A stretch of DNA of 64,000 nt from Escherichia phage Ecwhy_1: the sequence record MH791411.1; one strand, given 5' to 3'. Positions within the stretch are counted from its first letter, which is position 1; every line of letters starts with the position of its first letter. This document shows positions 3,679-23,202 of the stretch, piece after piece. The notes under the pieces were generated by a model, which made no database searches, was not told where the DNA came from, and saw only the letters and a list, made by a program, of their open reading frames with translations. The position numbers were made by a program, and so were the translations under genes.

Positions 3679-5643
3679 ATGAGTATAAATCGAATTAGAG
3701 GTGATGGTGGTGTAATTATAGATAGTCAGGCATTTCTAGAATTACCTAAAGCACCGACTAAAGAAACCGCTGATGTGGTTAGATCAGGGATGATTAGATA
3801 CAATAAAGGATGGAAAGCATTTGAAGGTGTACTAGACTTTGAAGATGGTTCAATGGCATATCGACGTTTTGCAAACCTAGATGCAAACGGTAAACTTCTT
3901 ACTTCCCAATTACCAGATTCAGTAACTAGTGGTTTACAATTTGTTGGTACATATAATCCCATCCCAGATGATATCGATCCACCTTTAGCACAAACTCCAC
4001 TACCAGCACCATCACCATCGCTTAATGGTGATTATTATGTCGTTCGTGGTATAATGGATGCCGCACAAGCACATTATGAAGCAAATAATCCACAAACAAG
4101 TCCTGTTACATTTACACCTACAAATCCAACTGGACAAGGTAATTGGATTGAAATTTTATATTATGTTGACTCTAATCCAAATATATCTGGTGCTAAACTA
4201 GTAACATACGCTTTTGCTAGAATTATTACTGCATCTATTCCCAGTACTGGACATGATGGCCTTGAAAATTTAGCAACAGATACTGACTTGACCAAACCAT
4301 TTGCATCTGGTGTTCCAATGAACCAAACTGCACTTTCAGATGGTGATTGGATTATTATAACTGAAGATAAGAATATACGTCTTCGTCAGTCAAGAACAAG
4401 CATTTCCGCTGCTTCAGTATTATATGACAATACTGTAATGATTGCAAATCATCGCCAATTTAGAACAAACGCAGGGACCGTTCAAACATCCATAGATAAC
4501 GTTGTGATTGAGTGTTTACGTAGAACTGGCGATTCCATGTATAATGATGGAACAGACGGCTCTGGGCGTTTTGGGGTGGTGTATGGCAGTGCAGCAGCAC
4601 CAGCATTGACATTTAATAATAATCCGTTTGACCCAACGAACAACCCAGGTAATGACCCAACTAAGTGGTCCGATGCTAATACTGGTATATTCCATCCAGC
4701 AGATGATGCAATTGGTTTTACAACAGCCGGAACTGAGCGTGTTAGAATTAATAATGGAACATTAACATTATTCCAAACTACCGCTACACCAGCAGCTACG
4801 CCAGTAATACGTTTTGATAATGCATCAAACACAAACGTAGGGATAAGTGCAAGTAGTAATATTATTTCTTTAAGTTCAATGAATAAAGTTCAAGTTGAAT
4901 TTAAAAATGGTGAATCACATTTTCATGGAAATATTATTGTAGATGGATCAACATCACTAACTGGTGATTTAAACGCAGGTAACATCACTGCCAGCGGGAA
5001 TTTAGTTGTTAAAGGTAATACAACACTAGGCGACACTACTGGTGACACTATTACAGTTAATGGTGTTAGTACTTATAATGCAAATACTAATTTCAATGGA
5101 ACTAATAACAAATTCAAAAACATAAACTTACTAGAGAATGGTGTATTCACATTAGAAAGTACTACAAACCAAAGTGATATAAAACTACTTGGTGCAGACT
5201 TACGTTTCACTATGGGAAGTTATGCTGATGTAAGTATATATGATAACGGTGTTATTCGTACTCGTTTCAACCGATATGGTATTCAATTACCAGTACTGGC
5301 TACAATTGATAACTCAGTTGGTGTTGATGGTATGATTGCATACTCAAATACCGAACGTACATCGATGCAGAAGGTCCAAGGACAATGGGTTCCAATTGGT
5401 TCTGGTTCTGTACGTACTGACCCGTTTACTGCGTCAGCGTGGGTTTTAAACGGCTCATATTACACATTAACAGTAACTGCTAGTAACATAGTAACTGCTG
5501 AAATTCAAGAACTCGTAAGTACTGGTGTTTACACTCGTGTTGAAGTTGATAGTGTTACATTCAATGGAACAAGCGTAGTGTTCAGTATTCCTGCAACTCC
5601 TGATGTGAGATTTGCCGGACGTACACTGGTTACATTAAGATAA
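3679..5643 (+). CDS. tail fibre protein
   Basis: 654 aa; N-terminus (GMIRYNKGWKAFEG) is the type commonly seen at tail-fibre N-termini, followed by Asn/Thr/Gly-rich beta-type sequence; GAGGAAA RBS. Confidence 0.65.
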   Translation: MSINRIRGDGGVIIDSQAFLELPKAPTKETADVVRSGMIRYNKGWKAFEGVLDFEDGSMAYRRFANLDANGKLLTSQLPDSVTSGLQFVGTYNPIPDDIDPPLAQTPLPAPSPSLNGDYYVVRGIMDAAQAHYEANNPQTSPVTFTPTNPTGQGNWIEILYYVDSNPNISGAKLVTYAFARIITASIPSTGHDGLENLATDTDLTKPFASGVPMNQTALSDGDWIIITEDKNIRLRQSRTSISAASVLYDNTVMIANHRQFRTNAGTVQTSIDNVVIECLRRTGDSMYNDGTDGSGRFGVVYGSAAAPALTFNNNPFDPTNNPGNDPTKWSDANTGIFHPADDAIGFTTAGTERVRINNGTLTLFQTTATPAATPVIRFDNASNTNVGISASSNIISLSSMNKVQVEFKNGESHFHGNIIVDGSTSLTGDLNAGNITASGNLVVKGNTTLGDTTGDTITVNGVSTYNANTNFNGTNNKFKNINLLENGVFTLESTTNQSDIKLLGADLRFTMGSYADVSIYDNGVIRTRFNRYGIQLPVLATIDNSVGVDGMIAYSNTERTSMQKVQGQWVPIGSGSVRTDPFTASAWVLNGSYYTLTVTASNIVTAEIQELVSTGVYTRVEVDSVTFNGTSVVFSIPATPDVRFAGRTLVTLR

Positions 5644-5650
5644 TAAAAAA

Positions 5651-5678
5651 GGGAGACATAAGTCTCCCTTTTCTTTTA
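5651..5678. terminator. bidirectional rho-independent terminator between convergent genes
   Basis: Perfect hairpin gggagac-ataa-gtctccc (5651-5668) flanked by aaaaaa upstream and ttttctttt downstream; lies between the plus-strand fibre gene (ends 5643) and minus-strand thyA (ends 5676). Confidence 0.7.
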
Positions 5679-6605
5679 TACAGCCATTGGTGCTTTGATT
5701 GTTGGCATTGGATCGTAATTAACTAATTTGAAAGAATCCATAGTGAAATCTTCAATATCAGTAATAGTAGGATCTAGCCATAATTCTGGTAATGTACGTG
5801 GTTCACGTTGGAGTTGCTCTTTTACTTGTTCAATATGGTTTTGATAGATATGGCAGTCGCCACCATTCCAAATAAATTCACCAACATCTAACCCTGTAAT
5901 TTGTGCAATCATATGAGTTAGTAGTGAGTAACTACTAATATTAAATGGCACACCAAGGAATAGATCAGCACTACGTTGATGAAGAATACAACTTAGTTTA
6001 CCCTGTACAACACAAAACTGCACAAAGCTATGACAGGGTGGCAAAGTCATAGCATCAAGCTCACCAACGTTCCATGCACTTAGAATGTGACGACGACCGT
6101 ATGGATCAGTATTGATACCTTCAATAACTTGTTTTAGCTGGTCAGTTACACGACGCATAATAACACCATGTGAACCAGTATAATCAATAACTTTATACCC
6201 TTTATCTTTTAGTTCTTGAATTTCTTCAGTACTGGAACTGAATTTATAATCTTCCCATTCACGCCATTGTTTACCATAAACTGGGCCAAGCTCACCATCA
6301 GAATACCCAAGGCTTACACCTTGATTAAGGTAGTTGTCTGTCCAAATTGTTTTCTTTTCTACATCACGTGTCCCGTGTAAAATTTCACACAGACGACGCT
6401 CATCGTGAGAACCTTCAATAAACCATAACAATTCTGAAGTCATTGCTTTCCAAGCCAAACGTTTAGTAGTTACTGCTGGGAAACCTTCTTTTAGGTCAAA
6501 ACGCATTTGTTGTCCGATTAGCTTGATAGTGCCAACACCAGTACGATCAACGCTTTCGACACCTTGATCCAGAATTCTTTGATATAGTTCTTGTAGTTGT
6601 TTCAT
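5676..6605 (-). CDS. thyA: thymidylate synthase (ThyA/Td)
   Basis: Canonical ThyA motifs: RTGVGT, GFPAVTTKRLAWK, GPVYGKQWR, ILSAWN, LPPCH catalytic Cys, LGVPFNISSY. Uninterrupted ORF, no intron. Confidence 0.9.
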   Translation of the reverse strand: MKQLQELYQRILDQGVESVDRTGVGTIKLIGQQMRFDLKEGFPAVTTKRLAWKAMTSELLWFIEGSHDERRLCEILHGTRDVEKKTIWTDNYLNQGVSLGYSDGELGPVYGKQWREWEDYKFSSSTEEIQELKDKGYKVIDYTGSHGVIMRRVTDQLKQVIEGINTDPYGRRHILSAWNVGELDAMTLPPCHSFVQFCVVQGKLSCILHQRSADLFLGVPFNISSYSLLTHMIAQITGLDVGEFIWNGGDCHIYQNHIEQVKEQLQREPRTLPELWLDPTITDIEDFTMDSFKLVNYDPMPTIKAPMAV

Positions 6606-7198
6606 TTTACGTCCTTGAAAAATGTAATAAAGTGTTCCATGTGTTTTTGTGTAGCATTACGTGAACCAATCCCAGTCCAATTACCGTGTGGTGCTGGTAT
6701 TGAGAATGTTTCAGTAAACTCTTTCAGTACTGTATCATAATAAAATACAGAGCGAGTGTTCATATCATAACAATATATTTCTGGATTGTCAACTGAATCC
6801 ATATACATCTGTACGGCCCATGCAGTTCCACCTGAAACTTGCGTAGGTGATGTAATATTTGCAATACAATATACTCTTTTTGTATTAAGTATCTGGTAAC
6901 TATTCCTTGCAAGTAAGTTATATACATACGAACCAGGCTTAGGAACTTTACGGCGTAAAGAGTAACATGCAATGTTTAATTGTTTTAATATTGAACTATC
7001 ACAAAGGATATTGGGTGGAATTTCTAATATAGTATTTTCATCTACGCTGCTTTGGTGACCCTTGAATGAAAAATTTATTACTTCAAATCCATTGTCTTTT
7101 GCATAGATAGAAAAAAGGCGGTCAGCACCTGCTGCCCCGCCACTGAAACATACATTAGATAAACCATTGATTGCTTCATCTAATTCTATTTTATTCAT
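6602..7198 (-). CDS. hypothetical protein with Rossmann-like glycine motif (SLOG/DprA-like?)
   Basis: 198 aa; motif FSGGAAGADRLFSIYA resembles the Gly-rich loop of SLOG/DprA-type folds; stop overlaps the thyA start (ATGA). Family assignment tentative. Confidence 0.5.
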   Translation of the reverse strand: MNKIELDEAINGLSNVCFSGGAAGADRLFSIYAKDNGFEVINFSFKGHQSSVDENTILEIPPNILCDSSILKQLNIACYSLRRKVPKPGSYVYNLLARNSYQILNTKRVYCIANITSPTQVSGGTAWAVQMYMDSVDNPEIYCYDMNTRSVFYYDTVLKEFTETFSIPAPHGNWTGIGSRNATQKHMEHFITFFKDVK

Positions 7199-7203
7199 TT
7201 ATA

Positions 7204-7857
7204 TTATTTTGCTTTACGTTCAGCAAATGCCTGTTTAACTTTCTCAATTGCTTTGGTTTGTGAAATTCCTTCTGGGATTTCAATATAGAAAGTTTTGCTA
7301 TCAGGTGCTACAGGTGTTGCTTGAACTTGTGGACGTAGAGATGGTTCTAAGTTGTAAGCACGTTCAAAGTGCTCTTTAGCCAACTGCTCATAACGTTGTG
7401 CATCTTTAAGTAGTTGCTCAACAATGGTAGCTTCTTCAACAGAAGTATCGACTTCTTGTGGCTTGAATGGGTTGTATTCTTTAACTTTACCATCTTCATG
7501 TTTTTTAGCATCATTATCATTGATTGCGTTGTTTAGAACATCAAGAGAAATCTTACTGTTTCCACCAACATGCATATCAATATCACAAGTACGTGCACGA
7601 CGCAAATGTTGTAGATTATGAAGAACATCTAGCATTTTGCGACCGTCTAGATGACCAATCTTATGCATAACTTCCCACAAATCTACATTCGATTGACCTT
7701 GATTCATTACTAAATCTGCAACAGATTGAGCATATGCTTCAGGAAGTGAGTCGCGATAAACAATGAGACAATGTTCTGGATCATCAGGGAGTGAACGCCA
7801 TACCACAAATACTCGTGAACCCGTATTACGTACTACACCAACGTGACGAATAGCCAT
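7204..7857 (-). CDS. hypothetical protein
   Basis: 217-aa ORF with ATG start, in a tight minus-strand array. Confidence 0.5.
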   Translation of the reverse strand: MAIRHVGVVRNTGSRVFVVWRSLPDDPEHCLIVYRDSLPEAYAQSVADLVMNQGQSNVDLWEVMHKIGHLDGRKMLDVLHNLQHLRRARTCDIDMHVGGNSKISLDVLNNAINDNDAKKHEDGKVKEYNPFKPQEVDTSVEEATIVEQLLKDAQRYEQLAKEHFERAYNLEPSLRPQVQATPVAPDSKTFYIEIPEGISQTKAIEKVKQAFAERKAK

Positions 7858-7859
7858 TA

Positions 7860-8090
7860 TTATTCTCCTTTATTTTGTTCAGCAGCAGCTTGTGCAGCAT
7901 CAGCTTCTTCTTGTGCTTTGATATCTTCGAGTGCAGAGTTAGCAAACTCAACAAACTTAGATACGACTGGAGCAACATCAACAAGTTCTTCGACTTTAAA
8001 TGAATTACGAGCCACAGCAGCTTCCATGATTTTAGCAGCGTTGATTAGGTCGATTAGGGTTAGTTGAATTTTTTCTGGTTCTTGTTCCAT
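7860..8090 (-). CDS. hypothetical small acidic protein
   Basis: Track ORF 7860..8189; the ATG at 8090 (MEQEPEK) has a GGAGAG RBS, the upstream starts do not. Confidence 0.45.
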   Translation of the reverse strand: MEQEPEKIQLTLIDLINAAKIMEAAVARNSFKVEELVDVAPVVSKFVEFANSALEDIKAQEEADAAQAAAEQNKGE

Positions 8091-8199
8091 TTTAATACTC
8101 TCCATGTATGTTGTTACAAATATAATTATATCACCTTTTTCCAAGCTGTCCCGCTGAAAAAAGTAGAGAACGGAATTTTCCGTTCTCATTATTTAGTAC

Positions 8200-9609
8200 T
8201 TAGCTACGTTGACGCTTTTTGTCAGCTTCATATTCGTAGTGTACAGTTTCGCCAAATGGTGCTTGTTTGTTAGGATTACTGTGGATAACAAACAGTGTCT
8301 TACAGTAATCAGGATCACCCCATGACTGCCACGGCTCACCATCTGTAAACATAATAAGCTGTTTAGGCTTATAGTTGTCATGCTTCATATGAACCCATAC
8401 TGCTTCAAAGTCAGTACCACCACCACCTTTCACTGGATATTCGAGAATCTTACTCTCTTCACCAGTTTTGTAATCTTTCACAGTATAAACTTCAGTATCG
8501 AACGTCATGATACGGATTTTAAATTGTTTAAACTGCTTAGTGATACCCAGTACTTCACTGATGAAATCACGGAGCATATCTTCAGAGATAGAACCGGATG
8601 CATCTAGTGCAATTGCAATATCAATATCATCATCTGGTTTCATACCAGGGAAGATTGGATTCCCGTAGAATGAACCAGAACTACCAAAACCAGCACCCCA
8701 TGAACGACGATTAGGATTTTGATAAGTTGCATCAGACTTCAACCAGCTACGCAGTGTGCGGTGAAGTTTGGAACGCCAGTCAATCTTAGGTTCTTTGAAG
8801 TTGTTAATCATACGTGCGATTTCAGCAGGAGTACCACCTGCACGAGCAGCATTCATCATTGCTGTTTTGAAATCATCCATATAATCACGTTTTTGTTTAT
8901 CACTTGAACCACCTTCTTGACCTTCTTGTGGAACGTCATGCTGGTCGATTGTTGTACCTTTGCCTTTACCATCTTTGATATCACCAAAAGTACCGCGTGA
9001 TTTACCTTCACCCTCACCACTACCAGCCTGTGGATTTCCTTCACCTTCTCCGTCTTGATCCTGCTTATCTTCTTCTTCGAGAATGTTATAAATCTCTTCA
9101 GCAGTCATACCATCGTACTTTTTATCGTACAGCCATTGGCTTTGGATTTTACCAATTTTATCACGAACAAGAATCTGGTTAATTGCATAGTCAGCAGCAC
9201 GGTTATAACGCTGCGGGTCACGCATACCACGACGCAAGAAGTGGTCATATGCACAGTGAAGAATCTCATGACAGATAACTGCAATCAGGTTTTCATCGGT
9301 CAAACCTTCTGTCATTTCTTTAAGTTGTTCTTCAGTTACTTCAGGATGTTTCTCACGAATTGCTTCTTCGTATGCTGACTTTTTGGATTGGTCCTGAATA
9401 CCCATGATGAATTCTACGTTGTAGAATAAATGCTTACCATCTACAGCCAAAGTACGACACCATGTGTTGTTTGCAACTGGACGCAGACGAGAAGCCAGTA
9501 CACCAAAGAATGGGAATGTTAGCATTAAAGATGTGCGAGCTAAGATCAGACGATCTTGACATTCTTTCTGGAGAGCCGGAGTAACATCACTGAAACGTTT
9601 ATCTGACAT
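8200..9609 (-). CDS. VWA-domain protein with N-terminal HExxH metallopeptidase-like motif (CobT/DUF2201-like partner of MoxR ATPases)
   Basis: 469 aa; HEILHCAYDH in the N-terminal half; VWA MIDAS-like motif DIAIALDASGSIS in the C-terminal half; Gly/Glu-rich linker; GAGGA RBS. Confidence 0.7.
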   Translation of the reverse strand: MSDKRFSDVTPALQKECQDRLILARTSLMLTFPFFGVLASRLRPVANNTWCRTLAVDGKHLFYNVEFIMGIQDQSKKSAYEEAIREKHPEVTEEQLKEMTEGLTDENLIAVICHEILHCAYDHFLRRGMRDPQRYNRAADYAINQILVRDKIGKIQSQWLYDKKYDGMTAEEIYNILEEEDKQDQDGEGEGNPQAGSGEGEGKSRGTFGDIKDGKGKGTTIDQHDVPQEGQEGGSSDKQKRDYMDDFKTAMMNAARAGGTPAEIARMINNFKEPKIDWRSKLHRTLRSWLKSDATYQNPNRRSWGAGFGSSGSFYGNPIFPGMKPDDDIDIAIALDASGSISEDMLRDFISEVLGITKQFKQFKIRIMTFDTEVYTVKDYKTGEESKILEYPVKGGGGTDFEAVWVHMKHDNYKPKQLIMFTDGEPWQSWGDPDYCKTLFVIHSNPNKQAPFGETVHYEYEADKKRQRS

Positions 9610-9629
9610 TTGTATTTCCTCGTTTAGTT

Positions 9630-9660
9630 AAGATAAAAGAAGGATACCATGTGGTATCCT
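9630..9660 (-). terminator. intergenic hairpin with U-run (partial terminator/attenuator between ATPase and VWA genes)
   Basis: Palindrome aggatacc-atgt-ggtatcct (9641-9660); on the minus strand it is followed by tcttttatct. Confidence 0.45.
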
Positions 9661-9684
9661 CCTTGTCAACACTCTTTTTAATTA

Positions 9685-11013
9685 TTAACCAAGAGAGCGT
9701 GCTTTACGTACTAGGTCAGAGTACTTCATAACGAAGTCTTTAAACGCTGGTACATCTTTAATCGTAATCGCTACTTTATGAAGCGTGATGGTACGAATCG
9801 CCAGTACTGCCAGTTCTGCTTGAGTTGCAGAGAAGTTATGGTCTAGGAAGGTGATGAAGTTGTTGCACAGCTTACCCCAATCTTCCACTGGTAGACGTTG
9901 TTCTTGCTTCTCATTGTAGAGGTCGATAATTTTGTAAACCAGATTCAGAGTGATGAAGTAGTTCGCGGAAATATCAAGCGAAGCATCAATCTCTTTAATC
10001 TCACCCTGTAGGATGGACATGGTATCTGGTAGTTTAGCTACGTTATCAACATACTCGATGTATTCAGTTGCTACGCCTTCACCAACACGACCTGCAATCA
10101 TCGCACGGAACACTTCTTTATCAATGTTCTTAACTTTCTTCAGATCTTCGTAGCGTGCTACTGCTTCCCATGAACGTGGAGAAGTACCACCACAGTGAGA
10201 AGGATCTTGTGGGCTAAGGGTGTTGAAGTGTTTAGCACCAGTGTTGTTGATGAACGCTACAGTTGCTGGGTTCAAACGCTTACCAATCGCATAATCGTTA
10301 ATCCAATCTTGATGATAAGGAATCATTTCGATGTGGGTCATACGGTCACGCAGTGGTGTAGCTAGAGAGAACGTTACACCGCCATCAGTTTCACGGTTAC
10401 CTGCTGCGAGAATCAGTGCAGTCTTAGGTAGCTTCATCTCACCAACACAACGGTCGAGGATTAGCTGATAAGACGCTGCCTGTACAATCGGCATTGCAGA
10501 GTTGATTTCGTCAAACAGAATAACACCTTTCCAATCTGGAGACAGTTTCAGTACTTTAGGTGCTGCCCACACAACTGCTGTTTCAGCGATGTAATCTTGT
10601 GCACTAGCCAGTTCAGATTCAATCAGTTGCTTACCATCCATATCAAGGAACACTTTCTCTGGAACTGGGATACCGCGAAGGTCACTTGGTTCAATCTGAG
10701 ACAAACGGAAATCGATAAAGTTAGTGTCTTGGTCGATTAGTTTGGCTTCAAACGCTGCCAGTTCACGGCGAAGTTGATCAGCATTTTCAGTATCAGCTTC
10801 GATTTGTTGTTTCATGAACTCAATTTTTGCCACGTTATCTTTACGCAGTGGGTAGTTCTCATCAGCGTATTGACGTGCGATAGCAGATTTACCGATACCA
10901 GGGCTACCCCAAATCATCAGGCTATCTTGAATCATGTCAGCCAGTGCCATTGCTTCTTTAGCTTTCTTAGGAGTCAGTTTTACGTTCAGGATATCGTTGT
11001 TTTGAGTAGACAT
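9685..11013 (-). CDS. MoxR/CobS-like AAA+ ATPase
   Basis: 442 aa; Walker A GSPGIGKS, Walker B ILFDEIN, and overall MoxR/CobS-like arrangement; AAGGAAA RBS. Confidence 0.8.
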   Translation of the reverse strand: MSTQNNDILNVKLTPKKAKEAMALADMIQDSLMIWGSPGIGKSAIARQYADENYPLRKDNVAKIEFMKQQIEADTENADQLRRELAAFEAKLIDQDTNFIDFRLSQIEPSDLRGIPVPEKVFLDMDGKQLIESELASAQDYIAETAVVWAAPKVLKLSPDWKGVILFDEINSAMPIVQAASYQLILDRCVGEMKLPKTALILAAGNRETDGGVTFSLATPLRDRMTHIEMIPYHQDWINDYAIGKRLNPATVAFINNTGAKHFNTLSPQDPSHCGGTSPRSWEAVARYEDLKKVKNIDKEVFRAMIAGRVGEGVATEYIEYVDNVAKLPDTMSILQGEIKEIDASLDISANYFITLNLVYKIIDLYNEKQEQRLPVEDWGKLCNNFITFLDHNFSATQAELAVLAIRTITLHKVAITIKDVPAFKDFVMKYSDLVRKARSLG

Positions 11014-11179: not shown

Positions 11180-11212
11180 TGGTCATTATATCACATCGTT
11201 CAGGCTTGTCAA
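11180..11212 (-). promoter_or_regulatory. sigma70-type promoter P1 (consensus -35/-10, extended -10, A-rich UP-like tract)
   Basis: Minus strand reads TTGACA (plus 11207-11212), 16-nt spacer, TGaTATAAT (plus 11185-11193); A-rich tract upstream of -35. Confidence 0.55.
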
Positions 11213-11271: not shown

Positions 11272-11304
11272 TGGTCATTATAACACATCATTCGGCGTTG
11301 TCAA
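11272..11304 (-). promoter_or_regulatory. sigma70-type promoter P2 (tandem copy of P1)
   Basis: Minus strand reads TTGACA (plus 11299-11304), 16-nt spacer, TGtTATAAT (plus 11277-11285); part of a ~60-bp direct repeat with P1. Confidence 0.55.
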
Positions 11305-19817: not shown

Positions 19818-22481
19818 TTATTGAGTCTTTTCAATACGAATAGGTACGTAAATGAAGTTGATAGACTTAGTAGGTTGGATTGCAATATCCATCCAAAGTT
19901 CGTTACGGTCAATACGTTCAGAAGTGTTGTTACTTTCGTCACAAACTACTGCGAAGTTATATAGACCTTGTTGTTGAACGATTTCAGCTAGGAAGCTATT
20001 CACTACACCACTGAATTCCTGACGAGTACTTGGAGTATTCAAACGGAATAGGAATGGTTCAGAGATGATTTCTAGTTGACGACGAATGTAAACAACCAAA
20101 CGAGCAACGTTAACACGGCTTAGTGCAGAGGTTTGGTTAGCAGATAGTGTTTTATCACCATATACTAGCAAGCCACGGTTAGGACGCATTGCAATTGGGT
20201 TAATGTTGTTGGTATACATCACGTCACGTTGACCTTGGTTGTATACTACTGGTTGATATTCACCTTCACTGTTAATGAAACCAGTACTTGCAGCGTTGGT
20301 TACAACACCACGAGTAGTACCAGCAGGTGGATACCACACATAACTAACACTATCACTGTACGCATAGGTACGCATTGCAACAGTACTGCCTGGAACTGCA
20401 ACTTCTTCACCATCAACGTTAGTACTTAAACACCAGCCCATGTACTGAGCAGCATAATCATATGCAGAAGTACGGCCTACTGAACCATTACTTGGTGCGT
20501 TGTTTGCGTTGGTAGCCCATTCTTGAACTGCACTACCGTTTCCGGTTGGGTTCAAACGAGCAGGTACATCAGTTACGATAAACGCTGTTTCTTTACGATC
20601 AGTGTTTAGGGTAATACATTCATCTAGAGTTTCTACATAACCAGGAACACAGATTAGGTTAAAGTTGATGAATTCAGAACGGATATCATCATTACCGATG
20701 ATTACAGCAGCTAGTGCTTCAACGATTAGTTTGCGTTGTGCTGCACGACCGAATAGACCTGCACCATCAAGACTAACACCACTAACAACTTGCCATTGAC
20801 CATTAACCATTTTCTTAACAACACCTTCGGTATTACCGAGGTCAATTGCAAGCATACCATTCTGATAAAGAGCAGCAGAAGCAACTTGTTCAGGGAAGTT
20901 AAAGTCAGCGAAAATCATACCGTTTAGAGTACTTTGGTCAGTATTGTCTAGTTTAACCCACTCACCATCAACGTTACGATAGAAATCATAACCATCAATT
21001 CCTTGAGATAGAGGGCGTACCCAAATTAGACGGTCTGCCGAAGGTTCATCAACTTGAACATATTTGTTATCTTCTTGTACTAGATCCCATTCGTCATTTG
21101 CAACATCTGCAATGTACATGGTAACAGTTAGGTTATCGGAATTACCGAAATCATACCAAATAGTACCGTCTTTAGCAATACTACGTGGAACAGAAGAGCT
21201 AACACGTAAGTTATTAACGTTAACTAGAGAATAGTTGTTACTATCTACAGTTAGTTTAGCTAGTTCATTCGCTGCAAAAATATCATCACCGCTTTGGGTA
21301 ACTTTAAAGCTATAACCTTTGGTGTTTGTAACTACCAAACCGCCATTAGATTCACGTTTGAATTTGAATCCATCATTGATAAGATCAGCACTAACATTTA
21401 GATTATCGATGATAGTTTGAGTATTAATTACGCCACCTTGTGGTACTGCAAGTACTTTAACAGATTTGTTTAGGTAAGCGAAAGTCAAATAACTATTTTC
21501 ACCAGCTTGCTCAATAACAGTTTCACCTAGTGGTACTGCTGGAGCACTAATTGCTGATAGTTTTGCACTTTGAATATAGAAAGAGAAACTCTTACTATCG
21601 TCATCAAAACGGCAAGCAATATAACTGTTGTTTAGTACACCACTCTTAGCTTCAACTTCTTGGAAAGAATTACCAGTATATGCTGGAACGATATTCCAAA
21701 CTTGAGTTAGAGATGCATAACGTTTTAGAACAAAGCGAGTGCCAAAATAGTTTGAACCATTTTGAGTATAACCATCACGAATCCATACGTTACCTTGTTC
21801 AACAGTTGAACCAACTGGAACTTTGTTGATTGGTGATAGATAAGTTTCAACCTGTACTAGACCAGATGCTGCACGTTTGTACATAAGCATTTGACCATTA
21901 CTTGGCTTATAACGTAGAACTAGATCATCAACGTTTAGACCAACTAGGCTAACATCGTCAACTTCTTCAGAACTTACGATGGTAACAGGCTTCAATTGCC
22001 AGTCATAGAAGCTGCTTGGGCTGTCTTTCTTAGCAACATAAGCTTCAATTTGTGATTGAGCAGCATCAAACCATAGAGTACCATTTGGTACTGGACCAGT
22101 TGGTGCAGTTGCACTTGGTGATAGTTGAGCTAAATCGATATCAGCACGAATAACATATGCACGGTTGGTGATGCCTAGATAAGAATACACAGCATGTAGA
22201 CCATATTCGTTTAGTTCGTCACCTTGAACAACTGAACCATTGTTCATTTGGAAAATTGGTGAGCCAAATGTATCTAGTGAGCTTTTCTGTGATGTTAGTA
22301 GCTGTAGTTTACCAGCGTTTGCTTTAGTGGTTCCCGCAGCGATTGCACTGCTACCAGGAACAAGTTTGTCTTCAGCAGTAGCGATTACAAATAGTGGTAC
22401 TGTGCCAGGAGCAGCAGCAGTACTCATACTTTCATCAGTTACTGAAATGGAAACGCCAGGTGAGAGTAGATCTCCTGCCAT
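19818..22481 (-). CDS. contractile tail sheath protein
   Basis: 887 aa; N-terminus MAGDLLSPGVSISV; C-terminal region (RVNVARLVVYIRRQ, VVCDESNNTSERIDRNEL, IQPTKSINFIYV) matches the conserved sheath C-terminal domain as I recall it from T4 gp18; GGAGGA RBS. Confidence 0.85.
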   Translation of the reverse strand: MAGDLLSPGVSISVTDESMSTAAAPGTVPLFVIATAEDKLVPGSSAIAAGTTKANAGKLQLLTSQKSSLDTFGSPIFQMNNGSVVQGDELNEYGLHAVYSYLGITNRAYVIRADIDLAQLSPSATAPTGPVPNGTLWFDAAQSQIEAYVAKKDSPSSFYDWQLKPVTIVSSEEVDDVSLVGLNVDDLVLRYKPSNGQMLMYKRAASGLVQVETYLSPINKVPVGSTVEQGNVWIRDGYTQNGSNYFGTRFVLKRYASLTQVWNIVPAYTGNSFQEVEAKSGVLNNSYIACRFDDDSKSFSFYIQSAKLSAISAPAVPLGETVIEQAGENSYLTFAYLNKSVKVLAVPQGGVINTQTIIDNLNVSADLINDGFKFKRESNGGLVVTNTKGYSFKVTQSGDDIFAANELAKLTVDSNNYSLVNVNNLRVSSSVPRSIAKDGTIWYDFGNSDNLTVTMYIADVANDEWDLVQEDNKYVQVDEPSADRLIWVRPLSQGIDGYDFYRNVDGEWVKLDNTDQSTLNGMIFADFNFPEQVASAALYQNGMLAIDLGNTEGVVKKMVNGQWQVVSGVSLDGAGLFGRAAQRKLIVEALAAVIIGNDDIRSEFINFNLICVPGYVETLDECITLNTDRKETAFIVTDVPARLNPTGNGSAVQEWATNANNAPSNGSVGRTSAYDYAAQYMGWCLSTNVDGEEVAVPGSTVAMRTYAYSDSVSYVWYPPAGTTRGVVTNAASTGFINSEGEYQPVVYNQGQRDVMYTNNINPIAMRPNRGLLVYGDKTLSANQTSALSRVNVARLVVYIRRQLEIISEPFLFRLNTPSTRQEFSGVVNSFLAEIVQQQGLYNFAVVCDESNNTSERIDRNELWMDIAIQPTKSINFIYVPIRIEKTQ

Positions 22482-22575: not shown

Positions 22576-23202
22576 TCACTTATTGGCATAAATAACGCTC
22601 AATGCTTGTTGGTGCAACGCTTCAATTGTGCTATTATTTTGTACAATGATATCAGGATTATTGATACCAATCCACGCCCATTCAGATTCATGAACTGATT
22701 CTAACTCAATTGGTTTCATGCTAATATCACCTTTATTAAAAGATGCTGCTAAACCATACCAGTGTGGGAGGGTACGCTGAACTTCAATCACAATACCATT
22801 TAATGAACGAATCATTTTTAGTTCATTTGGAAATCGGCAGTCAGTAATGATAATATTCCCTTCAACAGATTGCATTGACTTCTCTAAGCTATGGACCCAA
22901 ATATCATTATGAAAGTACTTACGCAAAATATTAGTACCGTAATTCTGTAATACCCAACGAGGGGAAACATCATCACGCCCCAACTTCTCACACCAGTACT
23001 GGTCTGGCTCTTCACGGAGTTTACGACTTTCCTTAGTCGAACCCTCAAGCATTTCACGATCCCATCCAAAGATAGCAGCAACTGAATCTTTAAGATTAGT
23101 TGCAAATGACATTCTTGTGTAACCATTATTGATAAAAGTTTCACCAAAAGTATCTTTGCCACTACCGATAGTACCGTTAATTGCAATTATTTGTCTTTCC
23201 AT
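22576..23202 (-). CDS. deoxynucleoside monophosphate kinase (T4 gene 1-like)
   Basis: 208 aa; P-loop GTIGSGKDT, plus WVLQNYGTNILRKYF and IITDCRFPNE segments paralleling T4 dNMP kinase. Confidence 0.65.
   Translation of the reverse strand: MERQIIAINGTIGSGKDTFGETFINNGYTRMSFATNLKDSVAAIFGWDREMLEGSTKESRKLREEPDQYWCEKLGRDDVSPRWVLQNYGTNILRKYFHNDIWVHSLEKSMQSVEGNIIITDCRFPNELKMIRSLNGIVIEVQRTLPHWYGLAASFNKGDISMKPIELESVHESEWAWIGINNPDIIVQNNSTIEALHQQALSVIYANK

Follow-up and report, generated by a model that had tools for sequence, protein, structure and literature searches.

The locus belongs to a Rak2-like jumbo coliphage. In the window, the whole 64,000-nt stretch of Escherichia phage Ecwhy_1 DNA that was analyzed (MH791411.1), the region around the thymidylate synthase gene (thyA) is 99.8% identical to that of phage fEgEco12. 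The initial annotation had described an upstream ORF whose end overlaps the thyA start, and both genes lie as described on the minus strand (Table 1). A direct read of the junction (...AAGGACGTAAAATGAAAC) confirmed the ATGA overlap, in which the thyA ATG shares bases with the upstream TGA; close relatives have either TAATG (-1) or 2 nt of spacer at this point and keep the AAGGA. The two genes end a tight run, g310-g311-SLOG-thyA, with gaps of no more than 5 nt or overlaps throughout, and a strong terminator closes both this transcription unit and a convergent 654-aa structural gene. Start/stop overlaps are frequent in this genome: of 28 adjacent gene pairs annotated in the near-identical fEgEco12, 7 overlap. 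The ATGA overlap reflects compact co-expression and does not point to a special pathway. The neighboring g311 was found solely in Rak2-like phages, and a structural model and search returned only generic SH3/KOW-like barrel matches that did not reveal a theme for the operon. PADLOC found no match among the five genes of the block.

Table 1. Coordinates of the genes, sites and motifs discussed, in window positions
Feature	Position	Strand	Remarks
Bidirectional intrinsic terminator	5645..5674	both	13-pair stem, then T-run
thyA, 309 aa	5676..6605	-	Predicted canonical thymidylate synthase
FNISSY Asn222 of ThyA	5940..5942	-	E. coli N177, uracil specificity (alignment)
Catalytic Cys191 of ThyA	6033..6035	-	E. 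coli Cys146 (alignment)
SLOG/thyA gene junction	6602..6616	-	AAGGA Shine-Dalgarno 6612..6616; ATGA stop/start overlap 6602..6605
SLOG ORF, 198 aa (fEgEco12 g312)	6602..7198	-	Predicted circularly permuted DprA-like protein; PHROG 768
G178-S179-R180	6659..6667	-	Matches DprA ssDNA-binding motif 1 (G-S/T/A-R); on C-terminal strand
G123-G124-T125 loop (SGGTAWAVQ)	6824..6832	-	Departs from LOG motif PGGxGTxxE; Q130 at catalytic Glu position
L95-L-A-R98-N99	6902..6916	-	Matches DprA ssDNA-binding motif 2 (F/L/Y-x-x-R-N/D); aligns to Smf NFPRRN
SGGAAGAD loop, residues 19-26	7121..7144	-	Aligns with DprA SGLARGID (hhalign); the YpsA GxD/E motif
g311, 217 aa	7204..7857	-	Stop 5 nt ahead of SLOG start
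g310, small ORF	7860..8090	-	First of the run; fEgEco12 annotation mapped onto the window
Sigma70-like site	8152..8125	-	Upstream of g310; 10/12 matches; promoter scan, consensus match only
T4 gp1-like dNMP kinase	22576..23202	-	About 15 kb off, directly upstream of tail sheath gene

The thyA product is, as predicted from its sequence, an ordinary dUMP-to-dTMP synthase, which would use methylene-THF as the reductant. It matched Pfam PF00303 at 3.6e-101 (338 bits, cut-off 24.3) and the NCBIfam equivalogs NF002497 (343 bits, cut-off 327) and TIGR03284 (329 bits, cut-off 108), its nearest solved structures are bacterial thymidylate synthases (1.8e-80), and it aligns to E. coli ThyA with 53% identity. 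E. coli residues R21, E58, W80, Y94, R126, C146, Q165, R166, S167, D169, N177, H207 and Y209 are all kept, the arginines that contact the dUMP phosphate included, and the C-terminus KAPMAV corresponds to E. coli KAPVAI, the tail that closes the active site. The FNISSY asparagine, already remarked on in the initial annotation, is indeed retained as residue 222, whereas T4 gp42-type dCMP hydroxymethylases carry Asp at the N177 position. Relative to E. coli ThyA the phage enzyme has three insertions (12, 7 and 29 aa) common to the Rak2-like clade; it has every sequence feature that defines bacterial and T4-type ThyA/Td, and its total length is near that of L. casei TS (316 aa). A pyrimidine hydroxymethylase (of the T4 gp42 type for dCMP or the SPO1 type for dUMP), as would go with 5-hydroxymethyl or hypermodified pyrimidines in the genomic DNA, was also considered for this gene and is not supported, given the retained Asn, the lack of hydroxymethylase and glucosyltransferase homologues in RaK2 and, as indirect evidence, the ordinary cutting of fEgEco12 DNA.

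The gene upstream of thyA encodes what its sequence identifies as a single-domain SLOG protein, related by circular permutation to the Rossmann-fold domain of DprA. The SLOG/DprA-like character proposed for it from a glycine-rich loop, FSGGAAGADRLF, is borne out by both profile and fold comparisons, and the loop itself is present at residues 18-29 (7112..7147). The protein matches PHROG 768 (4.7e-27), is called 'DUF2493 domain-containing protein' in fEgEco12 (g312), and has 104 homologues; clustered at 50% identity, the phage SLOG family as a whole has 2,759 representatives. In the structural model it adopts the Rossmannoid three-layer fold, with SLOG proteins as its nearest structural relatives, the closest being the cpYpsA-type 3imk, and the loops that mark the superfamily, Gly-rich ones after the first strands and GG(x)T after the fourth strand, are represented by SGGAxGAD, GGT and GSR, which vary little or not at all. 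Across 51 homologues, S19, G20, A22, G24 and D26 of the first loop, the motif described for YpsA (PMC6459960), are invariant, as are R98, G123, T125, G176, I177, G178 and R180, and L95, N99 and Q130 are conserved in at least 90%. Searching the PDB by sequence with the protein and with a 51-sequence profile yielded no credible relative, the top match being a spurious designed WD-repeat protein, and the C-terminal extensions of family members of about 300 aa had no Pfam match.

Among known systems, a near relation is the Rossmann-fold domain of DprA/Smf (PF02481; H. pylori 4LJK/4LJR, S. pneumoniae 3UQZ, ShosA 8ZVA). The family retains a GSR loop, an SGGAxGAD loop, an LxxRN helix and a GGT loop, the counterparts of which in DprA form a pocket for one base and its phosphate. 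In DprA the pocket was observed with thymine, and dT35 is bound with a Kd of 31.5 nM vs 1200 nM for dA35, about 40 times more tightly (PMC3950713); the DprA motifs G-S/T/A-R and F/L/Y-x-x-R-N/D are defined in the same study, which also quotes the LOG motif PGGxGTxxE (PMC3950713). The GSR strand is N-terminal in DprA and C-terminal in the phage protein, where the model places strand 174-178 last, followed by helix 184-191, and its GSR aligns to the DprA AVVGSR solely after permutation. Moving the C-terminal GSR unit to the front improved the hhalign E-value from 6e-5 to 3.6e-7 (reversed-sequence control, 0.67). Significance required a 5-sequence DprA alignment; against E. coli Smf singly the family match was not significant (probability 0.1) and the RN motif alone aligned. 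The Pfam DNA_processg_A model (PF02481) did not match the window protein, matched 2 of 51 homologues at E ~0.006, and gave the best fused family member 26 bits, below the cut-off of 29.6. DprA, which binds ssDNA, dimerizes and loads RecA, also differs in combining SAM and RF domains, with or without a C-terminal domain, whereas the phage protein is a single 198-aa domain with a beta-hairpin insert, and some DNA-backbone contacts appear to be missing, as K137 and R170 of DprA have no basic counterpart in an uncertain hand alignment. The isoelectric point gave no way to tell DNA binders from small-molecule binders (6.7 as the median of the family; 5.8-9.2 for DprA domains).

For the other SLOG clades, named here after Pfam descriptions and later papers, profile scores also fell short of the cut-offs. 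The YAcAr/DUF2493 model (PF10686) aligned to residues 15-44 with 19.1 bits (E 0.0012), below its gathering score of 28.2, and matched 14 of 51 homologues at E <0.01; no family member reached the gathering score of PF10686 or of the cpYpsA model (PF12694). From both, the phage family is set apart by its own invariant residues R83-x-x-P86, Q102, W127 and D134, together with Q130 (at least 90%). To our knowledge, no biochemical function has been described for cpYpsA or for YAcAr. LOG/PpnN phosphoribohydrolases (PF03641) carry PGGxGTxxE with a catalytic Glu, whereas the phage protein lacks this motif, has Gln130 instead, and had no Pfam match to PF03641. The glutamine makes N-glycosidase chemistry unlikely. 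Other SLOG families likewise carry GSR and RN motifs, which therefore do not identify the ligand. PADLOC defense models, including ThsA-type SLOG sensors, returned no match to the protein at E up to 0.01.

We then considered the genomic contexts of the family. A T4 gp1-type dNMP kinase gene (DNMK) lies directly upstream on the same strand in 40 of 69 distant viral loci, overlapping the SLOG gene by 1 or 4 nt in 19, and these kinase-coupled loci span 9 of the 24 SLOG clusters at 50% identity. In the window, the orthologous kinase (6e-79 against an HMM of the SLOG-adjacent kinases, 3.3e-12 to Pfam DNMK, in agreement with the fEgEco12 annotation) still stands beside the tail sheath gene without a SLOG gene, which suggests that the SLOG gene was relocated to thyA. 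Adjacency to thyA is confined to a single clade of the family, in most of which an extra ORF separates the two genes. The remaining loci, judged by eye, have mixed neighbors (baseplate, primase, ligase, HNH). In Caulobacter phage Cr30 the order is gp47-gp46-SLOG-peptide deformylase, and on Flavobacterium, Myroides and Paenimyroides chromosomes it is SLOG-WYL/WCX regulator-topA. E. coli smf adjoins def and the topoisomerase-like yrdD, a neighborhood that the latter order recalls. An ADP-ribosylglycohydrolase gene lies upstream of one Bacteroidales homologue, and in one locus (L103) KptA is encoded two genes upstream. The domain is also fused to a histidine phosphatase (P0228), and in three podophage groups, N4-like and crAss-like phages included, it forms part of giant virion proteins, among them N4-like virion RNA polymerases. 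Viral SLOG domains fused to guanylate kinase are on record (PMC9503650). The literature searched on DUF2493 and on experimentally characterized phage SLOG sponges contained no work on the family.

We tentatively favor, with somewhat less than even confidence, a reading in which the SLOG protein binds the 5'-phosphate unit of a nucleotide without catalysis and is tied to dTMP or dNMP supply. It would work alongside deoxynucleotide-supply enzymes with no part in base modification, having been translationally coupled to the gp1-type kinase in most distant relatives and moved beside ThyA in the Rak2-like lineage. Most probably it would bind dTMP or another dNMP, pass it on or sense it as an intermediary of ThyA and the kinase, since both enzymes handle dTMP, the equivalent DprA pocket held thymine and DprA prefers dT35 over dA35. 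Kinase adjacency may stem from one ancestral insertion into a T4-like stretch of conserved gene order, neck - PTH2/KptA - DNMK - SLOG - sheath, and so may reflect descent rather than function, and thyA adjacency, besides being clade-specific, was itself the reason that the locus was flagged, an ascertainment bias. A role in dNMP supply does not explain the domain in giant N4-like and crAss-like virion proteins. A more specific version, that the protein is a dedicated carrier of dTMP or dNMP from ThyA to the gp1-type kinase by way of the DprA-type thymine/phosphate pocket, is speculative and decidedly improbable. Such a carrier would be a previously unrecognized non-enzymatic subunit of a phage dNTP-synthesizing complex, which it might also tether to ssDNA at the replication fork, and would explain why kinase coupling is so widespread and why the gene moved beside thyA in Rak2-like phages.

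The pairing of thyA with a nucleotide-binding protein had initially been read as a possible pathway to a modified nucleotide or to modified DNA bases, in place of dTMP synthesis or in addition to it. The tight juxtaposition of the two genes fits this idea, and thymidylate synthase-family enzymes do yield 5-hydroxymethyl pyrimidines in other phages (general knowledge; PMC7824862). However, ThyA scores above the equivalog cut-offs and retains its full set of catalytic residues and the C-terminus that closes the active site, we identified no catalytic motif in the SLOG protein, LOG-type or other, and thyA is a neighbor in one clade of the family only. DNA of fEgEco12 is cut into the fragments expected in silico by all ten restriction enzymes tried (PMC13070987), and RaK2, the DNA of which is reported to be methylated, has no hydroxymethylase or glucosyltransferase homologues (PMC3622015). 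A base-modification pathway is thus largely refuted and highly improbable; what survives of the proposed nucleotide link is the tie to deoxynucleotide metabolism, through the dNMP kinase coupling of most distant members.

Possible, and only slightly less likely than the favored reading, is that the protein grips ssDNA through its GSR and LxxRN pocket as a recombination mediator or ssDNA protector for a phage RecA/UvsX-like recombinase, in which case it would sit beside thyA or the kinase only incidentally. The protein has the two ssDNA-binding signature motifs of DprA, and both align; RaK2, of the same clade, encodes gp46/47 and a RecA-like protein but lacks a UvsY homologue (PMC3622015), and jumbo phages conserve a DprA/Smf protein proposed as a possible extra ssDNA binder (PMC7824862). 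The topA/WYL, gp46/47, primase and ligase contexts (the last two from our own reading of unscanned sequences) point to DNA transactions, and the N4-like virion RNA polymerases that contain the domain use ssDNA templates. Yet PF02481 left the window protein unmatched, the SAM and C-terminal DprA domains are absent from a permuted topology, basic counterparts of K137 and R170 seem to be lacking, and ssDNA handling leaves both the kinase coupling and the phosphatase fusion unexplained. The sole basis of the usual annotation as a 'DprA-like recombination mediator' is the PHROG label.

Unlikely, although it has been proposed for viral YpsA-clade SLOG domains (PMC9503650), is a role in counter-defense, in which the protein would bind or process immune signals derived from NAD+ or ADP-ribose, such as the cADPR isomers of Thoeris, early in infection. 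Viral SLOG domains occur in 31% of jumbo phages (PMC9503650; PMC7824862), the nearest fold is of the cpYpsA type, the domain travels in giant virion-delivered proteins, and the ADP-ribosylglycohydrolase and KptA neighbors would suit such signals; two perfect sigma70 promoters upstream, by consensus match only, suggest early expression. Against this, in the loci examined the family was neither fused nor adjacent to Macro, NADAR or Nudix, ThsA-type models were unmatched, and the Glu-to-Gln change makes degradation by LOG- or TIR-like chemistry unlikely. One copy within a virion protein would also be a poor sponge, and the dominant conserved neighbor is the dNMP kinase. As flagged, the locus is ordinary, a standard thyA beside a gene that public records already call DUF2493 or 'DprA-like', and the very large family to which that gene belongs recurs in three settings, of which two are couplings (to a dNMP kinase and to ThyA) and the third is within giant virion-delivered proteins. 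Whether the pocket holds a dNMP, ssDNA or an ADP-ribose-derived signal bears on the use of SLOG domains in about one third of jumbo phages and on many annotations.

The locus flagged by the initial annotation is real but ordinary, consisting of a standard thymidylate synthase gene (thyA) and a gene publicly annotated as DUF2493 or 'DprA-like'. New here are the description of the latter's product, the SLOG protein, as a circularly permuted DprA-like SLOG domain, the restriction of its pairing with thyA to one clade, and the usual partners of its family, a dNMP kinase and giant virion proteins. Both ORFs were found as annotated, and the thyA ATG overlaps the upstream SLOG TGA, since the junction reads AAGGACGTAAAATGAAAC, with an AAGGA ribosome-binding site 7 nt upstream. 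The overlap is unremarkable in itself, and 7 of the 28 adjacent gene pairs in the annotated table of Escherichia phage fEgEco12 (PP777464) overlap. Positions 5000..8200 of the window are 99.8% identical to fEgEco12 and ~82% identical to PBECO4 and 121Q, all three being Rak2-like jumbo myoviruses of 350-385 kb. The junction becomes TAATG in 121Q and PBECO4, a 2-nt spacer in RaK2, and ~300 nt with an extra small ORF in GAP32, CBB and the Yersinia and Erwinia relatives.

Features at the thyA/SLOG locus, its surroundings and two viral contigs
Feature	Coordinates	Strand	Remarks
Predicted strong bidirectional terminator	5645..5674		13-bp GC-containing hairpin, T-runs on both sides
thyA	5676..6605	-	309 aa
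SLOG ORF	6602..7198	-	198 aa
g311 (fEgEco12 numbering)	7204..7857	-	217 aa; confined to Rak2-like phages
Terminator-like hairpin	8187..8166		Precedes g310, g311, SLOG gene and thyA
Metallopeptidase/VWA gene	8200..9609	-	Paired with AAA+ ATPase gene
AAA+ ATPase gene	9685..11013	-	Paired with metallopeptidase/VWA gene
Predicted sigma70 promoter	11212..11185	-	12/12 consensus, extended -10 TG
Predicted sigma70 promoter	11304..11277	-	12/12 consensus, extended -10 TG
Tail sheath gene	19818..22481	-	Kinase gene directly upstream
T4 gp1-like dNMP kinase gene, orthologous	22576..23202	-	6e-79 against HMM from SLOG-adjacent kinases
Unannotated giant ORF with SLOG domain	L068 5727..14792		Viral contig
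Unannotated giant ORF with SLOG domain	L079 3717..12740		Viral contig

By sequence, ThyA is predicted to be a canonical thymidylate synthase. It matched Pfam PF00303 at 3.6e-101 and exceeded the cut-offs of two NCBIfam equivalogs, NF002497 (343 bits, cut-off 327) and TIGR03284 (329 bits, cut-off 108), and its nearest solved structures were bacterial thymidylate synthases (1.8e-80). E. coli ThyA is 53% identical, and the window enzyme keeps R21, E58, W80, Y94, R126, C146, Q165, R166, S167, D169, N177, H207 and Y209 (E. coli numbering) as well as the conserved C-terminus KAPMAV. The sole difference from the E. coli enzyme is three insertions (12, 7 and 29 aa) common to the whole Rak2-like clade, the largest falling between the equivalents of E. 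coli residues 105 and 106. The FNISSY motif is present as annotated, its Asn aligning with E. coli N177; this residue is expected for a dUMP-specific enzyme and is no pointer to altered chemistry. In RaK2, homologues of dCMP hydroxymethylase and glucosyltransferase were not found by its authors, who took methylation by two methyltransferases of the phage to explain how it behaves under restriction (PMC3622015). As ThyA, moreover, is apparently canonical and the SLOG protein lacks a catalytic motif, there is very little support for the base-modification pathway that the gene pair had been proposed to encode.

The suggested SLOG/DprA-type fold, by comparison, proved correct: the upstream protein is a member of the SLOG superfamily. 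It matched PHROG 768 ('DprA-like DNA recombination-mediator protein') at 4.7e-27 and, below threshold, Pfam YAcAr, formerly DUF2493 (19 bits, cut-off 28); neither a single-protein nor a family-profile query found sequence relatives in the PDB. The Gly-rich loop reported initially, FSGGAAGADRLF, corresponds to residues 18-29. Fourteen residues are invariant in an alignment of 51 sequences (S19, G20, A22, G24, D26, R98, Q102, G123, T125, A128, G176, I177, G178 and R180), from which AlphaFold2 returned a confident model (pLDDT 97.2, pTM 0.92). The ssDNA-binding domain of DprA is marked by the signatures G-S/T/A-R and F/L/Y-x-x-R-N/D, as opposed to the LOG motif PGGxGTxxE (Wang et al., PMC3950713). 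The SLOG family carries both DprA signatures, as G178-S179-R180 and L95-x-x-R98-N99, and lacks the LOG motif, having SGGTAWAVQ with Gln130 in place of the catalytic Glu. Unlike in DprA, where the GSR strand comes first, the model places it last. The protein's fold is that of the SLOG superfamily and its pocket is of the DprA type, while a catalytic Glu as in LOG is absent.

We compared the family by hhalign with a five-sequence alignment of the DprA Rossmann fold (E. coli Smf and four PDB chains). The native order gave an E-value of 6e-5 (probability 65%), whereas all circular permutations placing the C-terminal GSR unit ahead of SGGAxGAD gave 3.6e-7 (93%), pairing TGIGSR with AVVGSR, SGGAAGAD with SGLARGID and NLLARN with NFPRRN. 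Where the cut did not restore the GSR-first order, the E-value stayed at ~5e-5, and a reversed-sequence control gave 0.67. These alignments show that the SLOG protein is a circularly permuted DprA-like domain. We rejected DprA proper as an assignment, given the sub-threshold Pfam score, the lack of a SAM or C-terminal domain and the different topology.

Recurrent co-occurrence with thyA did not hold up across 79 viral-contig loci and seven phage-record loci encoding SLOG relatives. ThyA lay just downstream in only 17 loci, whose SLOG proteins are at least 50% identical to that of the window and form one cluster, the Rak2-like clade. Among ~65 more distant loci, none had ThyA within 8 kb of the SLOG gene except one Vibrio jumbo phage, with thyA 1.4 kb downstream. 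The pairing is therefore lineage-specific. In 40 of 69 distant loci, the immediate upstream gene on the same strand instead encodes a ~215-aa protein matching Pfam DNMK (T4 gp1-type dNMP kinase), overlapping the SLOG gene by 1 or 4 nt in 19 of the 40. This adjacency occurs in 9 of 24 SLOG clusters at 50% identity, and the commonest gene order is neck, PTH2 or KptA, DNMK, SLOG and tail sheath. The window also encodes an orthologous kinase beside a tail sheath gene but, unlike most distant relatives, has no SLOG gene in between, which argues that in the Rak2-like lineage the SLOG gene left the kinase for a place beside thyA, ~15 kb away. Both neighbours, kinase and ThyA, handle dTMP, and together they are the best evidence for some connection of the family with deoxynucleotide supply, although the kinase adjacency could reflect one ancient insertion kept by synteny.

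We searched 1.84 billion cluster representatives with a profile of the family and obtained 2,759 members, mostly standalone proteins of 175-220 aa. Some ~15 of the top 150 carry a ~100-aa extension, mostly C-terminal, with no Pfam match, and a 368-aa metagenomic protein (P0228) has a His_Phos_1 histidine-phosphatase domain fused N-terminal to the SLOG domain. Full SLOG domains with all motifs also lie inside ~3,000-aa proteins of two viral contigs (1e-54 to 1e-58), in the annotated 3,819-aa virion RNA polymerase of the N4-like Klebsiella phage Pylas (L106) and in a 4,328-aa protein of the crAss-like phage cr113_1 (L105) annotated only as 'DprA-like'. These giants span 3,000-4,300 aa across N4-like and crAss-like podophages, and the profile search added others of 1,722-4,050 aa. 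We take the first four to be virion-delivered, so that the SLOG domain would enter the host upon injection.

On Flavobacterium, Myroides and Paenimyroides chromosomes (L088, L091-L094, L096, L098; ~5950..10100 of each locus), cellular homologues (27-33% identity) sit at a conserved site. A WYL/WCX-domain regulator begins 3-7 nt after them, with topA next, an order resembling the bacterial dprA-topoisomerase gene link. They are oriented divergently from a large gene that looked MiaB-like by eye. The more distant homologue of a Bacteroidales MAG (L099, 28% identity) is preceded at ~700 nt, on the same strand, by an ADP-ribosylglycohydrolase gene (ARH; Pfam 1.6e-39; gene pair at 4283..5197 and 5899..6513). 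In Caulobacter phage Cr30, gp46/gp47 and peptide deformylase flank the SLOG gene.

We infer that the SLOG protein acts as a binder and not as an N-glycosidase. The equivalent pocket of H. pylori DprA accommodates a single thymine, which lies between the R-N helix and the Gly loop, and has the GSR arginine as its gate; binding is ~40-fold tighter for dT35 than for dA35 (PMC3950713). Our tentative first choice is that the protein may bind dTMP or a different dNMP, or pass it on, within the nucleotide-supply arm of the phage; we rank this role first because the family is coupled to the kinase, its gene relocated to thyA in this lineage and one member is fused to a phosphatase. Nearly as likely, and also tentative, is a DprA-like role in ssDNA binding or recombination mediation, which would fit the DprA motifs, the settings beside topA/WYL and gp46/47 genes, and the fusions to virion RNA polymerase; RaK2, moreover, lacks UvsY yet has a RecA-like protein (PMC3622015).

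Viral SLOG domains of the YpsA clade have been predicted to act against immune signals derived from ADP-ribose (PMC9503650). Such a function here is a less likely possibility than the two roles above: it agrees with the fusions delivered in virions and with ARH and KptA as neighbours, but not with the family's missing catalytic residue or its dominant kinase neighbour, and there was no PADLOC match.

The run from g310 to thyA has gaps of at most 5 nt or overlaps and ends at a predicted terminator shared with a convergent 654-aa structural gene (3679..5643). In the g311 model the N-terminus forms an SH3/KOW-like barrel region, alongside a disordered linker and a long helix, and searching with this model returned generic SH3/KOW-like barrels and no other match. 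Farther upstream, two perfect sigma70 promoters stand in tandem before the AAA+ ATPase gene and then the metallopeptidase/VWA gene, inside an otherwise virion-structural region, and suggest that this inserted block may be expressed early by host RNAP. The 469-aa product of the second gene is an 'HNH endonuclease' in PHROG 1314 and GenBank records. Because Pfam assigns it a DUF2201_N putative metallopeptidase and a VWA-like DUF2201 domain, and its pairing with the upstream AAA+ ATPase resembles N4 gp24/gp25, the HNH label looks like a propagated annotation error.
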